A DNA stretch of 64,000 nt from Candidatus Bathyarchaeota archaeon (GTDB lineage Archaea; Thermoproteota; Bathyarchaeia; Bathyarchaeales; Bathycorpusculaceae): positions 256,001 to 320,000 of the forward strand of contig CAWGYA010000002.1 of the NCBI GenBank assembly GCA_963826715.1, given 5' to 3'. Each line of letters starts with the position of its first letter. Positions within the stretch are counted from its first letter, which is position 1. The notes beneath the pieces were generated by a model, which searched no databases, had not been told where the DNA came from, and saw only the letters and a list, made by a program, of their open reading frames with translations. Positions 34,819 through 42,792 of this stretch are shown here, piece after piece. The position numbers and the translations under genes are program-made.

Positions 34819-35721
34819 ATGGAAATAGGAATAACCGCAAATACAACCCCAAATAAAGTCACAGTTGCATTAATCCAGACAACAGTTTCAGAGAACATAG
34901 CTAAGAATATTCAAAAGACCCAGCGCAGAGTCGAAGAAGCCGCGCATGGGGGCGCCCAAATCATCTGTCTACAAGAACTCTATCGTACTCGCTACTTCCC
35001 ACAGGAGGAGCATCGTGACGTCGCAGATTTGGCGGAGTCCATCCCAGGTGAATCTACCGATGTCCTCGGCAAACTCGCAAAACAACACAGCGTTGTTATC
35101 ATTGCACCTCTGTTTGAAAAGGGAAGCGACAACAAATTCTACAATTCCGCCGCAGTCATAGGCGCAGACGGACAAGTCATGGGGGTTTACCGCAAAATCC
35201 ACATACCCTATGACCCCTACTTCTTTGAGAAAAACTACTTCACACAAGGCACAAACCCCTACAGAGTCTATGATGTGGGGTGCGCTAAAATCGGGGTGCT
35301 CATCTGTTATGATCAATGGTTCCCCGAACCCGCACGCATCAACACCCTGAAAGGGGCAGAAATTATTTTTTATCCCACAGCCATCGGTTACGTCAAAGGC
35401 TACAACAGTGCGGATGGCGACTGGCATGACGCCTGGCGAACCGTGCAGAGAGCACACGCCATTGCAAATGGCGTCCATGTGGCAGCAGTGAACCGAGTCG
35501 GTGAAGAAGATGAGCTGGAGTTTTGGGGCAGCAGTTTTGTCTGTGACGCCTTCGGCAAGGTCGTTGCAGAAGCCAGTAATCAAACCGAGCAAACCCTAAT
35601 CGTGACCGTTGACCTTTCTAAGAACAAACAAATCCAAGAGGGCTGGGGCTTTCTTCGTAATCGACGCCCCGATACATACCTGAAACTAACAGAGAAACTG
35701 AGAGGCACCTCAGATGAATAG
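34819..35721 (+). CDS. aguB: N-carbamoylputrescine amidase (nitrilase family)
   Basis: CLQEL, YRKIHIP, LICYDQWFPE, YPTAIG; adjacent to agmatine deiminase. Confidence 0.9.
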   Translation: MEIGITANTTPNKVTVALIQTTVSENIAKNIQKTQRRVEEAAHGGAQIICLQELYRTRYFPQEEHRDVADLAESIPGESTDVLGKLAKQHSVVIIAPLFEKGSDNKFYNSAAVIGADGQVMGVYRKIHIPYDPYFFEKNYFTQGTNPYRVYDVGCAKIGVLICYDQWFPEPARINTLKGAEIIFYPTAIGYVKGYNSADGDWHDAWRTVQRAHAIANGVHVAAVNRVGEEDELEFWGSSFVCDAFGKVVAEASNQTEQTLIVTVDLSKNKQIQEGWGFLRNRRPDTYLKLTEKLRGTSDE

Positions 35722-36760
35722 CGGAAAAGCCTGCCGTGAACTTGGTTTCTGCATGCCCGCTGAGTGGAAACGTCATGATGCAATTTGGCTTGCTTGGCCC
35801 TACGACCCCACAACCTTCCCTAACCGAGTTGAGCGAGTCGAAAGCACTTATGTGCAGATTATTAAGGAAATCCATGAAAGCGAACACGTCAATCTGTTTG
35901 TCGTCGATGACCCCACAAGGAAAAAGGCTACTCAACTCTTCGATGAAGCAGGCATAGATCAATCCAAAGTGGACATTTTAGTTTCCGATTATGCAGATGT
36001 ATGGTTCCGCGACTATGGCCCTATCTTTGTCCGTAACCCCCGCCACGAATTAGCGATGATCCATTGGGACTTTAATTCTTGGGGCGAAAAATACGAAACT
36101 CTGCTAAAGGACCGAGAAATCCCATCTGTCATCAACGAGAGGATGAAGGTTAGGTGCTTCAAACCAGGCATTGTTTTGGAAGGGGGTTCAATTGAAGTTA
36201 ATGGCGAAGGGACGCTACTGACTACAGAGCAATGCTTGCTTAATAACAATCGGAACCCGCACCTAAATAAACAGAAAATCGAACAGTACCTAATGGATTA
36301 CTTGGGCGTTACCCACTTCATTTGGCTCAAACGCGGAATCCTGGGGGATGACACCGACGGGCACATCGATGACCTGGCGCGCTTTGTGAACCCAACTACC
36401 ATTGTCTGTGCCTACCAAGATGATCCAGCCGAAGCTGATTATGAAGCGCTTAGAGAAAACTATAAGGTCCTCAGCCACGCAACTGATCAAGACGGGGAAA
36501 AAATTAATATCATTAAATTACCCATGCCCAAAGTCATCAGTGACGAAGATGAGCAACTTCCCGCCAGTTACACCAACTTCTACATAGGCAATACCAAAGT
36601 ACTTATGCCCACCTTTGACCATCCTAATGATTTAGCAGCACTGTCTATTTTGCAAGAACAATTTCCGACACGCAAAGTGGTCGGTATCCGATGCACAGAT
36701 TTAGTTTATGGTTTTGGCACCCTACATTGTATTAGTCAGCAGCAGCCTTGCCCTATTTAG
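35714..36760 (+). CDS. aguA: agmatine deiminase
   Basis: MPAEW, WFRDYGP, EGGSI, DDTDGHID, ASYTNF, GTLHCISQQ. Confidence 0.95.
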   Translation: MNSGKACRELGFCMPAEWKRHDAIWLAWPYDPTTFPNRVERVESTYVQIIKEIHESEHVNLFVVDDPTRKKATQLFDEAGIDQSKVDILVSDYADVWFRDYGPIFVRNPRHELAMIHWDFNSWGEKYETLLKDREIPSVINERMKVRCFKPGIVLEGGSIEVNGEGTLLTTEQCLLNNNRNPHLNKQKIEQYLMDYLGVTHFIWLKRGILGDDTDGHIDDLARFVNPTTIVCAYQDDPAEADYEALRENYKVLSHATDQDGEKINIIKLPMPKVISDEDEQLPASYTNFYIGNTKVLMPTFDHPNDLAALSILQEQFPTRKVVGIRCTDLVYGFGTLHCISQQQPCPI

Positions 36761-37656: not shown

Positions 37657-38087
37657 TTAGGTATCAATGTTTAACATTCGAACAACATCAATGAAACCAA
37701 TTTTTTCGCCCTCTTGATCCCTCAAAAAAGAAGTCGTTACTTCTATTTTTGATTCTTCCCCATTCTTTAACACAACCCTATATTCATTACTCATATATCT
37801 TGATTATTCATTATTGCAGTAATAGAACGTTGAACAGCCAGACTTCTTTCTTCCTTAACCAAAAACTCAAGATAGTGCTTGCCTATAAACTCGCTTTTAT
37901 CATTTGCACCAAAAATATTTACAATTAATTCGTTTACGTCAGAAATGTAGCCATATAAGTCACCGACCAATATGCCATCACCTGCATTTTTGCTTGACGC
38001 AAACAGATCTTGATCAATTTCAAATTCTATTCGACCGTTTCTGTCAACTATCGAAATAAACTCTGCTTGCTTGACTGCTTTAGACAT
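37657..38087 (-). pseudogene. stand-alone PAS domain protein, frameshifted
   Basis: PAS core (DGILVGD...EFIGKHYLEF) continues as MSNEYRVVLKNGE...LRDQEGEKIGFIDVVR after an extra AT in GATATATG (~37795). Confidence 0.7.
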
Positions 38088-38264
38088 ATTGAAATATTTT
38101 TCGATCGATTAAAAAAATGTTTCGACGCTACTTCACAACACAAAGCCTTCCACCTATTTTATTCAAAAATGATAATTCTTTCTTGATCTAACTCAATTTT
38201 TGAACTAACAACATTTCTTTGAGATAGTTTAACTTATAATAGTTGAGGATATGTCGCAGGTTGT

Positions 38265-38906
38265 TCATTGTAAATATTTCTGGGGATTAATTTTGAGTCT
38301 TTTGCATAACTCTAGAAACACAGCCAAACGTTCTGTTCTATCTTCAGTATTAAAACGTAGAAAGAAAGGACGTTGTTCCATGTCAAAAGGGTCCTTCGCT
38401 GCCCCAAATAAGTAAAAAAGCATTGCAACAAAAAGAACTGCCACATCACCTTTCCGGGCCAACAATCCTGCGATTAAGGCTTCTTTGATTTCTGGAGGAT
38501 GATATTCTATTATATCATCGAGTATTTGGGAGAGCCCAGTGAACACCTCTGCGTTTTGTAAAGCATCTAAAAATAGACAAACTTCTCTCACTATCCGAGA
38601 CCAAATCCGGAGCAAACCGTGTAACTGCAACGCGAACAGAAGGGTCAGGGTCCTTTATGGCTTGCTTTAAAGTTTTTTTAGCCCTTTCGGTATTAATTTG
38701 TGCAAGCGCTTCAATGCCGCGCCAATCACGAGAGCTATGATTGATTAATATTTGCTCAATTACCTTGCGTTCGAATGGAGATGCAGATTTTAGCAATCTA
38801 TGTCATAGCCTATGCCGTCGTGCCACTTATCGAAACCTATGATCATACTTTTTTCAAAGCGTTGAAGGGGAGTAGTTGGACGAAATTGATCATTACCAAT
38901 TGACAC
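38265..38906 (-). pseudogene. HEAT-repeat protein with two frameshifts
   Basis: three consecutive frames: LQRFEKSMIIGFDKWHDG / RDWRGIEALAQ...DPDPSVR / DALQNAEVFTGLSQ. Confidence 0.7.
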
Positions 38907-39061
38907 TTTAGTTTCCTCTTGGTGTTTTGAAGTTATCGATTACAAACAAGAATCATAAATAGGCTATTAAATGATCATTTTGGTGAAGTTAAGTTTAAAC
39001 TCTCCAGTGGAATAATAGGTAGAACACCACCAGTTTGGGCGTAAAGGGGAGAGAATGGTTT

Positions 39062-41278
39062 ATGGTTAATGCTCAGCCTAATCGCAGCCGCGGCGTCAAA
39101 GTTCTAAAAGCCGTTTCCTCACCCATGCGGCTGCAAATCCTTAATTTGCTATTCGATAAAAGTGCCCTATCTTATAGCGAACTCATGACTCAGCTCAAGA
39201 TGAATCCCAGCAGAGACGCAGGAAGATTTGCCTACCACCTCAAATTCCTCCTCAAAGCTGGGCTATTAGAGGCAGATGTAGAAGCAAAAAAATACTATCT
39301 AACCGACCTCGGCAAAATGGTGCTTGATGTAGCAGACCGAGTTGAGAAGAAAGCCGTTAAACCGCGCGGTATGCTTGTGCGCACGTCTCATTTAACGCTG
39401 GAAGAGTTTGATGCAAACAAAATCGCTAATTCTCTTATCAAAGAAGCAAAGGTACCAGCTGAGCTCGCCCAGAAAGCTGCAAAAGAAGCCGAGAAGCGCC
39501 TAGTGAAATCTAAAACCAAGTACCTTACAGCGTCGCTTATCCGCGAAGTCGTCAATGGCATCCTCGTAGAGAAAGGCTATGAAGAATATCGCCACAAACT
39601 CACTCGGGTGGGCATGCCAGTTCATGAAGTAACTGCACTCATTGAATCCAAAGATGCCGCACAGGACTGCTCAGTCGCCATCAGTCGGGCGGGACAAACA
39701 GTGCTGGGGGAATATACGCTACTAAACATTTTTCCCCGAGACATCGCCGACGCACATCTATCCGGCGCCATCCATATAGACAGCTTAGGCACATGGCTGT
39801 TAAAGCCCAATGAGGTCGTGCATGAACTGCGCTATTTCTTTATGCACGGCATCCAACCTGCTAACCCTCAGCAAGTCAAAATGGAAGCGCCTGACAACTT
39901 CAAATCCGCTCTCTCTGCAGCATTCAATGTACTTTTACATGCTAGTAGAGAAATCAATTGCACACAGACCTTCAACTATATCAATCTCGCGCTCGCACCT
40001 TTCGCACGGGGCAATGACGAGACTAAGCTTAAAGAGAACCTGAGACTGTTTATCTTAAACATTAATCAACATGTTGACGCTACGCTGGGGTTGGATCTCT
40101 CAATTTCCAACTCTACCGCCGAAAAGGAGGCCTTTGGCGCGCGGGGAAAAGCTGCAGGAAAGTATGGTGACTATGTTAAAGAAAGTCACTTGTTGGCCTC
40201 GTTAATTCTGGATGTATTCATTGAAGAGAGCTCCGCTAGACCGTTACTTAATCCCAAACTCATAATAAAAATCGCCCCCGAAACTTTAACAGATGAGAAT
40301 GCGAAGGCACTTTTTCAAAAAGCCCATCAGTTAGCACATCAGGGTGGAACCCCCTACTTCGCCAATCTCACAAAAAAAGGCTCGGAGAACTGGGCTTTTA
40401 CTTCTTCAGGAGCCAAATTCTCTTCCGACCTGACAGGAGACTGGGAAACCGATACATTACGTACAGGCGCCCTTGGCTGCGTTAACATAAACCTACCACG
40501 TATAACGTTGGAATGCGAGGGGAATAAAAACAAATTCATCGACTACCTAAAAGAACGCTTTGAACTCTCAGCACGAGCCCTAGGCATCAAAAATAACGCG
40601 TTAAAGCAGTTCGGCAAAAACGCGCTGCCATTTCTCTTACACAAATCTAACGGTGATACCTACTTCCGGCTAGAGAACTGCTCACGCATCGTGAATTTAG
40701 CAGGGTTCTGCGAAGCAATAGAATCTTTTACCGCTAAAAACATAAACGCCCCTGAAAGCCGCCAATTCGCCGAGGAAATAATCGCTAGCCTGCTGTCGTT
40801 TAAGCAGAAGTTGGGCAGAAAATACGGCAGACGACTCTACCCCGCAATCTTGGGTAATCGTGAAGCTGCCGAGCGTCTAGCCCAGCTCGACATCGAACGC
40901 TACGGCTTAGCAAAAGTTAAGTTCTCGGGGACACGCGACAAACCCTACTACTCAACGGTTAAACGTATCCAAATCAAAGCCGCCCCGACACTACTAGCGC
41001 CTGTTGGGACAATGGAAACAGCCCAACTCACAAAGGGCTTAATTGTAGGAGGGAGCCTTGATATACTCGAACTTCAAGGATCAGAATTTTCAGCAGAAGC
41101 ACTAATGGATTTAACTCGGCGAATAATTGAGAACGACACAAGCGAGTTCTTCACATACAATCGCGCGATAAGTTTTTGCGAAAACTGTAAGAAAAACTAT
41201 TACGGCACGTTACACAAATGCCCTAATTGCGGGGCTATGAGCACTCTAACAACATTTGACCGCTTTGCAACAACCTAA
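39062..41278 (+). CDS. ArsR-wHTH + ATP-cone + class III RNR (NrdD)-like fusion, predicted catalytically inactive
   Basis: LKAVSSPMRLQIL...FAYHLKFL; VRTS...FDANKI...LIREVV; ADAHLSGAIHI, INLPRI, CENC..CPNC; ends DRFATT* with no R-x-x-G-Y. Confidence 0.85.
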   Translation: MVNAQPNRSRGVKVLKAVSSPMRLQILNLLFDKSALSYSELMTQLKMNPSRDAGRFAYHLKFLLKAGLLEADVEAKKYYLTDLGKMVLDVADRVEKKAVKPRGMLVRTSHLTLEEFDANKIANSLIKEAKVPAELAQKAAKEAEKRLVKSKTKYLTASLIREVVNGILVEKGYEEYRHKLTRVGMPVHEVTALIESKDAAQDCSVAISRAGQTVLGEYTLLNIFPRDIADAHLSGAIHIDSLGTWLLKPNEVVHELRYFFMHGIQPANPQQVKMEAPDNFKSALSAAFNVLLHASREINCTQTFNYINLALAPFARGNDETKLKENLRLFILNINQHVDATLGLDLSISNSTAEKEAFGARGKAAGKYGDYVKESHLLASLILDVFIEESSARPLLNPKLIIKIAPETLTDENAKALFQKAHQLAHQGGTPYFANLTKKGSENWAFTSSGAKFSSDLTGDWETDTLRTGALGCVNINLPRITLECEGNKNKFIDYLKERFELSARALGIKNNALKQFGKNALPFLLHKSNGDTYFRLENCSRIVNLAGFCEAIESFTAKNINAPESRQFAEEIIASLLSFKQKLGRKYGRRLYPAILGNREAAERLAQLDIERYGLAKVKFSGTRDKPYYSTVKRIQIKAAPTLLAPVGTMETAQLTKGLIVGGSLDILELQGSEFSAEALMDLTRRIIENDTSEFFTYNRAISFCENCKKNYYGTLHKCPNCGAMSTLTTFDRFATT

Positions 41279-41280
41279 AC

Positions 41281-42304
<1,024 letters not shown>

Positions 42305-42689
42305 TTTTTGTAGGTCTGAGTCATAAAGCAGGGGATTTAGTCTTTTTCAACCCTAAAGACAGAAGTAACGATAAAACCACTTGTGCCCTTTGGACTACAC
42401 TAACCTATGACACTAAACTCTGCTCATACAAAGAAGCAAGGGAACTAACAGGAATTTAACGCCTTCATGACTTATGTTAGACGTAATTTTGGTAAGGTTT
42501 CCTGTTATAAAGTGTTTGAATCCGTCGAAAACGGTTATCCCCTCATCATTGTATATTGCTCTTTAAAGAATACACTTTCCAAGTGTTTAGAGACGACAAA
42601 GGTCAATTCAGAGTACATGCCCAAAAAAACGATTTAATAGTCAATCTCCCCAACAACCCCAAAACAAAACGATTTTATAGCAAATTCCT

Positions 42690-42792
42690 TAAAGGGTGGG
42701 GTCATCCACTACGACGACTGAGACGCTTTAAGCCCCTAAAGTGGAGGGCTGGAGTTTGGTGCATCGCTCCTGTTGCCGCAATCAGTTTTGAA
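42690..42792 (+). repeat. diverged inverted copy of the structured element at 45285-45384
   Basis: TAAAGGGTGGGGTCATCCRCTACG, GCTTT(T)AAGCCCC and GTGGRGGGCTGGAGTTTGGKGCA blocks shared. Confidence 0.85.

Follow-up and report, generated by a model that had tools for sequence, protein, structure and literature searches.

The stretch of DNA analysed here (the window) comprises 64,000 nucleotides (nt) of contig CAWGYA010000002.1 of a Candidatus Bathyarchaeota archaeon. At 39062-41278 on its forward strand lies one uninterrupted frame of 738 codons, encoding an ArsR-type winged helix-turn-helix (wHTH) domain, an ATP-cone and a barrel resembling that of NrdD, the anaerobic (class III) ribonucleotide reductase (RNR). 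An initial annotation had placed pyrB directly against this gene, and indeed the stop codon of pyrB (TIGR00670, 394.7 bits) lies 2 nt past the stop of the frame, on the opposite strand. The frame starts at ATG 39062; an alternative TTG start nine codons upstream would give an open reading frame (ORF) of 39035..41278, and the homologues have the N-terminus MVN, the same as that encoded from ATG 39062. The same annotation had described the wHTH, the ATP-cone and an NrdD barrel with a four-cysteine (Cys4) zinc site in one intact ORF of 738 amino acids (aa), and this was confirmed both by Pfam and by an AlphaFold2 (AF2) model compared with solved structures by Foldseek. The features of the locus are listed in Table 1.

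Table 1. Position of the gene, its domains and motifs, and neighbouring features in the window
Feature	Position	Strand	Remarks
Three WTGATCAW copies upstream of the promoter	38839..38980	.	Possibly a binding array
Probable promoter: B recognition element (BRE)/TATA, TTTAAA at 38994-38999, then TAGGTA-containing block	38985..39031	+	Footprint
Coding sequence of the wHTH, ATP-cone and predicted non-catalytic NrdD-like protein	39062..41278	+	738 aa plus stop; TTG alternative 39035
ArsR-type winged helix-turn-helix, residues 12-98	39095..39355	+	Pfam HTH_5, DUF7347; helix/strand order in AF2 model
ATP-cone, residues 105-180, divergent 'VRTS..E.F' type	39374..39601	+	PF03477; best-conserved region of the family
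NrdD-like alpha/beta barrel, residues 205-731	39674..41254	+	PF13597, TIGR02487 below cut-off, Foldseek
HxHD remnant, IHIDS	39770..39784	+	Substrate-triphosphate motif in canonical NrdD
KPNE at the loop-cysteine position (canonical PYC/PFC)	39803..39814	+	Cys in 0/49 members
TSSGAK at the thiyl-radical cysteine position (canonical MCCR/QCCR/MGCR)	40400..40417	+	Cys in 0/49 members
Zinc site CxxC-N10-CxxC, kept (C706, C709, C720, C723)	41177..41230	+	Four Cys in 49/49 members
Tail STLTTFDRFATT plus stop in place of the glycyl-radical loop	41240..41278	+	No Gly after G724
pyrB, convergent	41281..42201	-	TIGR00670 394.7 bits, cut-off 237; probable TTG start 42201

In the Pfam search the N-terminal domain scored 28.4 bits against HTH_5 (cut-off 22) and 31.8 bits against DUF7347 (cut-off 27.6) at residues 14-88, the ATP-cone (PF03477, residues 105-176) scored 30.2 bits against a gathering score of 25.8, and the barrel (NRDD, PF13597, residues 205-731) scored 207.8 bits over profile positions 11-535 of 562. 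This last match ended 27 profile positions early because the glycine-loop region is missing, as could be seen in the alignment. The NrdD equivalog TIGR02487 gave 212.2 bits, below its cut-off of 326.35, and TIGR00244 (NrdR) was not among the 13 NCBIfam families that the protein matched. The only solved structure matched by the wHTH was HlyU (E-value 9e-4). The AF2 model, built on 49 family sequences, was confident (predicted local distance difference test score 87.8, predicted template modelling score 0.79), and its wHTH had the order helix-helix-helix-recognition helix-hairpin-helix. The best Foldseek matches were class III RNRs with ATP-cones, headed by that of S. thermophilus (9dca_A, E-value 1e-25) and followed by those of P. 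copri, T. maritima and phage T4, with much weaker matches (~1e-9) to class Ia R1 and to glycyl-radical enzymes of other kinds. The most conserved peptide of the family, DAGRFAYHLK, lies within the wHTH; residues R107, E114, F116 and I121 of the cone are invariant or nearly so, and PF03477 was matched by 48 of the 49 members.

As reference for the catalytic residues we aligned the protein with P0122, the canonical NrdD of its own genome. Where P0122 has the loop cysteine (GPYC) the protein has KPNE, and where it has the thiyl-radical cysteine (SMCCRL) the protein has TSSGAK; both pairings had been proposed by eye in the initial annotation and came out the same here. HIHD of P0122 aligned with HIDS, and the NxN flap is deleted in the protein; the flap and HxHD are described as substrate-contacting motifs of NrdD in PMC11226230. 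The absence of the RxxGY motif, also claimed earlier, was likewise seen, as the protein stops 15 residues past the last zinc cysteine and has no glycine beyond G724, at the place where P0122 reads YSRVVGYL.

We then compared 49 full-length members of the family, picked for coverage that included the N-terminus (a choice that leaves the catalytic counts unaffected), with seven canonical NrdDs, of whose counts those for the flap and HxHD alone are informative because the seven were picked for having both cysteines and the glycine. The NxN flap, the loop cysteine and the thiyl cysteine were each found in 0/49 members of the family as against 7/7 canonical proteins. The first histidine of HxHD was present in 39/49 members and in 6/7 canonical NrdDs, the second in 1/49 as against 7/7. 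Glycine stood at the radical position in 11 of the 49 members, and tyrosine followed at that site in only one, whereas both were present in all seven canonical proteins. Each of the four zinc ligands was found in 49/49 members, in every case as cysteine, and in 7/7 canonical NrdDs, one of which has histidine at one position. The wHTH was likewise present in 49/49, a count that is partly circular because members were chosen for N-terminal coverage. Deeper branches of the family have a longer tail that follows the pattern R-x-x-(not Gly)-x-Y/F...PL...W and represents a degenerate glycyl-radical domain; in the clade of the window this tail has been lost. These alignments show a protein without every residue class required for radical chemistry and substrate binding, and on the evidence of its sequence we conclude that it cannot be a ribonucleotide reductase.

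Proteins of this kind are widespread. A search of 1.84 billion representative sequences gave 1576 matches at E <= 1e-3, 855 at <= 1e-10 and 297 at <= 1e-30. The 120 clusters listed among the homologues are 72-99% identical and 734-739 aa in length, except for one of 747 aa; the four Pfam domains are present in every one, and those with a name come from Bathyarchaeota or Bathyarchaeia. In a sample of 121 genomes of the class, 112 matched at E <= 1e-20. Eighty-seven of the 121 gave strong matches (E <= 1e-75). The majority of these extend over the whole length, beginning with the wHTH, and the full-length ones have no internal stop; the remaining 25 of the 112 had a weak match only, of the canonical-NrdD kind. 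In a sample of the phylum the family profile matched 130/161 genomes at E <= 1e-30, in many families outside the class. A strain-specific lesion, raised as an objection in the initial annotation, is ruled out by the relatives present in 87/121 class genomes and in many other families of the phylum. A scan of contigs yielded 577 encoding stretches. Nearly all of the 80 best (59-81% identity) have titles that name Bathyarchaeota or Bathyarchaeia, among them Candidatus Bathycorpusculum; these 80 served as the close relatives for synteny and footprints below (n = 77 for upstream regions, n = 71 for pyrB starts). Three contigs with a 67-76% identical copy are titled Nanoarchaeia, Limnocylindrales bacterium and Methanocella sp. 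(L071, L104 and L109) and are probably mis-binned, because nearly all other titles are Bathyarchaeia. Two of the sampled genomes have the gene as a pair of adjacent ORFs, broken near residue 480 (G032:C4:69465-71683) and near residue 258 (G095:C3:909614-911795), owing to either an assembly frameshift or real decay.

That the family is old and under purifying selection is supported by dN/dS (the ratio of nonsynonymous to synonymous divergence) of 0.067 and 0.10 in the two pairs with unsaturated dS, dS being saturated in three of the five pairs. Between the genome of the window and that of a congener, nonsynonymous divergence (pN) was 0.054 both in the wHTH and in the cone and 0.20 in the barrel core. 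Mean pairwise identity among the 49 members was 0.58 in the cone, 0.45 in the finger/NLPR segment, 0.41 in the wHTH and 0.26-0.37 in the rest of the barrel, whereas in the seven canonical NrdDs the order was reversed (cone 0.32, barrel 0.35-0.40). Constraint therefore falls on the presumed sensor and DNA-binding head of the protein, and not on the former active site. The check on orthologues suggested in the initial annotation, namely that they should keep the wHTH and lack the catalytic residues under selection, thus gave a positive answer.

Canonical archaeal NrdDs share with the family the VRTS..E.F cone and the stretch around the loop cysteine, which reads RPFCQEHDLRFF in those enzymes and KPNEVVHELRYF in the family protein; from these common features we conclude that the family is derived from that archaeal type of NrdD. 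In a FastTree phylogeny (midpoint-rooted, with support values not taken into account) all sequences with both cysteines and the glycine fell into one subtree, and we draw no order of events from it. The tree also contains NrdD-like proteins (P0227, P0244, P0245, P0272 and their neighbours) that have kept the loop cysteine and lost the thiyl cysteine or the glycine motif, some of them seemingly without a wHTH; these may represent further, separate lineages of dead NrdD. No description of an NrdD family with a wHTH or without the glycine was found in the open-access literature searched, including PMC9669993, PMC9531940, PMC13450708 and PMC2795772.

The genes that adjoin the family gene elsewhere are informative. 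In 21 genomes of the class it immediately precedes an nrdD gene of the same orientation, and in some of them a small redoxin gene separates the two. Twelve of these 21 nrdD genes were inspected: the CC thiyl motif was present in 12/12, HxHD in 11/12 (no match in L151) and RxTGY in 11/12, the exception being interrupted by 100 N, and judged by these motifs the 12 genes look catalytically competent. A different arrangement was found in another class, where in 5/5 genomes sampled (99% complete, 1.6-4.3 Mb) the only PF13597 match, of 50-75 bits, lies inside the family ORF, so that these five genomes show no canonical NrdD. In all five the family gene has an RNR gene of the PF02867 type as its neighbour, which follows it in the same orientation in four and is divergent in one. 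We consider these neighbouring RNR genes of two classes to be the main support for a regulatory role. The family proteins of these five loci (L063-L067, from G121, G194, G180, G131 and G138) are 671-719 aa long, with a strong wHTH, cone and N-terminal half of the barrel and a C-terminal half that accounts for only 50-75 bits of PF13597. At some of the loci adjacent to nrdD an element TACAr-N3-TTTTATAC (TACA-N3-TTTTATAY, with two TACAr about 12 nt apart) is found 8-9 nt upstream of the BRE/TATA of nrdH/nrdD; it occurs in 7/21 such loci (L021, L022, L023, L033, L053, L055 and L059), and in these lineages it is a candidate for an operator or for an activator site.

The genome from which the window comes (the host genome; 2.64 Mb in 8 contigs, 96% complete) was found to have a canonical system as well. 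A cluster nrdR-nrdD-nrdG is located on contig C7 (locus L001:698-3961), and all three products score over the curated cut-offs: NrdD with 652 bits against PF13597 and 577 bits against TIGR02487, and NrdR with 156 bits against TIGR00244 (cut-off 124.65). This settles the matter, left for checking in the initial annotation, of whether separate nrdD and nrdG genes exist; its remark that no nrdG adjoins the family gene was also correct, the only NrdG over cut-off being the one beside the canonical nrdD. No class I or II RNR was found in the host genome. With the canonical cluster present, the family gene is not needed by the cell for catalysis. NrdR scored over cut-off in 11/121 class genomes, namely all 10 of the taxonomic family of the host and one other, and in 10/10 genomes of that taxonomic family nrdR abuts nrdD. 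Upstream of nrdR in these ten lies a TATA element followed by a 16-bp palindrome, rCrCTA-N4-TAGtGt, with a second half-site about 15 nt on. These look like an NrdR-box pair, and they are best ascribed to the true NrdR. In all ten, the dead-NrdD gene is unlinked from nrdD and lies tail to tail with pyrB. Two genomes of another taxonomic family have an NrdD 65-71% identical to that of the host (over the part contained in the locus) directly downstream of the family gene, so that the linkage to nrdD looks ancestral and broken in the host lineage. A dead-NrdD gene and a bacterial-type NrdR coexist in the host genome.

We consider it probable that the gene product is a non-catalytic descendant of an archaeal class III RNR that acts as a nucleotide-sensing transcription regulator of the supply of deoxynucleoside triphosphates (dNTPs). 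In such a protein the barrel would be a dimerisation and allosteric scaffold, as it is in NrdD dimers. Binding of ATP or dATP to the cone, and perhaps also occupation of a retained specificity site, would shift the placing of the two wHTH domains and so alter DNA binding, whereby transcription of dNTP-supply genes would be matched to the nucleotide pool. In the host genome the targets may be the protein's own promoter, the nrd operon acted on from a distance, or other nucleotide genes. To a wider picture we give an even chance: the family would be an ancient and widespread archaeal regulator in which a whole retired RNR senses ATP, dATP and dNTPs and the NrdD dimer signals to two winged helices, controlling whichever RNR class its host has, and the host lineage, having later gained a bacterial-type NrdR for its nrd operon while strong selection maintained the older regulator, would possess two sensors that share or divide the dNTP-supply regulon. 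The proposal that an RNR scaffold has been repurposed as a regulator was already part of the initial annotation; the gene's position upstream of nrdD in 21 genomes and beside a PF02867 RNR in 5/5 speaks for it, and the search of the host genome for an operator or target speaks against it, as neither was found. Its suggestion that the protein is an analogue of NrdR has to be qualified: the host genome already has a true NrdR, and NrdR-box-like sites precede its nrdR-nrdD-nrdG cluster.

Several observations weigh against this interpretation. The context counts overstate the support, since genomes of related lineages are not independent. In the host lineage the family gene adjoins no RNR gene and the nrd operon has its own NrdR and palindromes, so that RNR control may not be the job of the family gene here. 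No operator common to the promoter of the family gene and any candidate target was found in the host genome, and the TACA-N3-TTTTATAY element has no exact copy there (one-mismatch matches 53, against 70 in the control). The cone is divergent: on its own it matches no solved ATP-cone by sequence, its hhalign probability against the cone of the genome's own NrdR is only 5%, and it has valine in place of the first basic residue of the usual KR pair. The wHTH scores 33.2 bits against the ArsR metalloregulator subfamily NF033788, below the cut-off of 55. The DNA binding and nucleotide sensing that the mechanism would require are steps that we infer.

Were the interpretation correct, the family would show clearly how an enzyme can be retired from catalysis and become a transcription factor that reuses its allosteric apparatus. 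To our knowledge, the control of RNR transcription is unknown in most archaea; an RNR-derived allosteric scaffold joined to a DNA-binding domain and located beside RNR genes of two classes is a concrete, testable candidate for it. NrdR scores over cut-off in only 11/121 class genomes. There is also a consequence for annotation. Members of the family are named in databases either 'ArsR family transcriptional regulator' or 'anaerobic ribonucleoside-triphosphate reductase', and by the second name anaerobic dNTP synthesis is over-inferred from metagenomes, as genomes with the family gene alone would have no class III RNR.

It is unlikely, in our view, that the protein is a DNA-binding nucleotide sensor whose targets have changed in this NrdR-bearing lineage, for instance to genes of pyrimidine synthesis (pyrB) or of replication and repair, with NrdR having taken the nrd operon. 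Such a move would agree with the occurrence of NrdR, abutting nrdD, throughout the host's taxonomic family, with the ancestral nrdD link that looks broken there, and with a gene that is intact and constrained despite NrdR; moreover, pyrB is convergent with the family gene in 78/80 close relatives. However, convergent genes have no common promoter and the synteny with pyrB may be plain inheritance, no convincing element is common to the conserved promoter/leader of pyrB and the promoter of the family gene, and three genomes outside the host's taxonomic family have the pyrB arrangement without NrdR.

We regard as improbable the second option of the initial annotation, an inactive partner subunit that would use the conserved dimer interface to pair with the true NrdD and modulate the enzyme, the wHTH being secondary. 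The barrel and the motifs common to NrdDs (LAPF, NLPR, RLAxLD) are kept, a canonical NrdD is present in the host genome and nrdD is often adjacent elsewhere, all of which a partner of NrdD would explain; but such a partner is a misfit with the 5/5 genomes that have no canonical NrdD and keep the family gene beside a PF02867 RNR, and with a wHTH that is far more constrained than the barrel and present in all 49 members (subject to the circularity mentioned above).

We hold it to be very improbable that the barrel has acquired a new, non-radical enzymatic or ligand-processing activity that the wHTH couples to DNA. A barrel of about 530 residues and a Cys4 zinc site kept over great distance are more than a simple sensor might need; yet the barrel residues conserved at >=90% are canonical NrdD motifs with no new constellation among them, the barrel is the fastest-evolving part (0.26 identity, pN 0.20), and in some lineages its C-terminal half is nearly beyond profile recognition while wHTH and cone stay strong. 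Finally, a decaying pseudogene copy of nrdD, as the loss of all catalytic residues and the split genes in G032 and G095 might suggest, can be dismissed in view of the intact frame, near-constant length in the 120 listed clusters, lack of internal stops in full-length matches, dN/dS of 0.07-0.10 and conserved promoter.

The probable promoter of the family gene was recognised by comparison of related genomes: TTTAAA-N15/16-TAGGTA was present in 44/77 related upstream regions and in 1/77 control stretches, a count that represents a footprint among related genomes and not a statistical test. Footprinting of the upstream regions of 10 family genomes revealed only BRE/TATA. No further exact copy of the TTTAAA-TAGGTA block occurs in the genome, and its two one-mismatch matches look like chance. 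The NrdR-box-like pattern was not seen upstream of the family gene, nor was it enriched in the genome (38 per strand, 43 in the control) or in the window (52, with 55 expected). A block conserved about 110 nt upstream of nrdR has no counterpart near the family gene or pyrB, and scans for inverted repeats and for sigma-70 promoters and terminators gave nothing above chance in the sequences searched.

Nowhere else in the 2.64-Mb genome do three or more TGATCA fall within 150 nt, as they do in the WTGATCAW trio upstream of the promoter; ATGATC/GATCAT was observed five times there, with 0.073 expected. The trio is not conserved in the 77 relatives. Enrichment of GATC/TGATCA upstream of the family gene was seen in the host genome and in five genomes of another class, and was not seen in the 77 close relatives or in 39 + 21 other loci. 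TGATCA was considered and rejected as a link to targets, as its other pairs in the genome are located within ORFs or have unrelated genes as neighbours.

On the other side of the gene, a start codon is found at the position equivalent to 42201 in 58/71 relatives, and the true start of pyrB is probably TTG 42201. The GTG start given by ORF calling (42246) falls within a strongly conserved promoter/leader at 42199-42250 on the reverse strand. This leader consists of GTTATTTAG, about 15 nt, CTTTCTTGTTT and then an AGGTG Shine-Dalgarno sequence, and GTTATTTAG was present in 41/71 relatives and in 0/71 control stretches. The T-rich initially transcribed stretch is reminiscent of the UTP-sensitive leaders of bacterial pyr genes. 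A search of 38700-42700 against Rfam was negative, and no RNA is listed for the stretch. Upstream of the family gene, on the reverse strand at 37791-38796, are a 98-aa PAS fragment, a 121-aa ORF without family and an overlapping ORF of 93 aa that weakly matches HEAT; these three small ORFs have no counterpart in the loci of any of the 80 close relatives, and the stretch has the appearance of an insertion specific to the lineage or of gene remnants. Further upstream is an agmatine deiminase-like gene (35714-36760, PAD_porph) that recurs in 26/80.

Three known systems invite comparison. Like NrdR, the protein joins an ATP-cone to a DNA-binding module, and its gene adjoins RNR genes in many lineages. 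In PMC9110341 and PMC12176259 the nucleotide load on the cone of NrdR is described as deciding DNA binding, and by analogy the family protein is proposed to work in the same way. NrdR (TIGR00244) is an RNR-specific repressor of bacteria and a few archaea, and a true one is also encoded by the host genome. Unlike NrdR, which has about 150 aa and an N-terminal zinc ribbon, the protein, at 738 aa, combines a winged helix with a complete dead RNR barrel; it leaves TIGR00244 unmatched, the cones of the two are barely alignable, and the NrdR-box-like palindromes precede nrdR and not the family gene.

With NrdD (9dca/9d3x, 8p2s, 4coj, 1hk8) the protein shares the ten-stranded barrel fold, the order of cone, barrel and zinc site, and the motifs GxIHI, LAPF and NLPR, and in sequence it is closest to archaeal NrdDs that also have the 'VRTS' cone and the HDLRYF stretch. 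It differs from NrdD in that the NxN flap, the complete HxHD, both cysteines and the glycyl loop are all gone, in scoring below the equivalog cut-off, in its extra N-terminal wHTH and in having no activase of its own. Like ArsR/SmtB regulators it has an N-terminal region of 90 residues that scores over the HTH_5 cut-off and adopts a winged-helix topology in the model; unlike them it falls below the metalloregulator cut-off, and dimerisation and ligand sensing would presumably come from the RNR scaffold.

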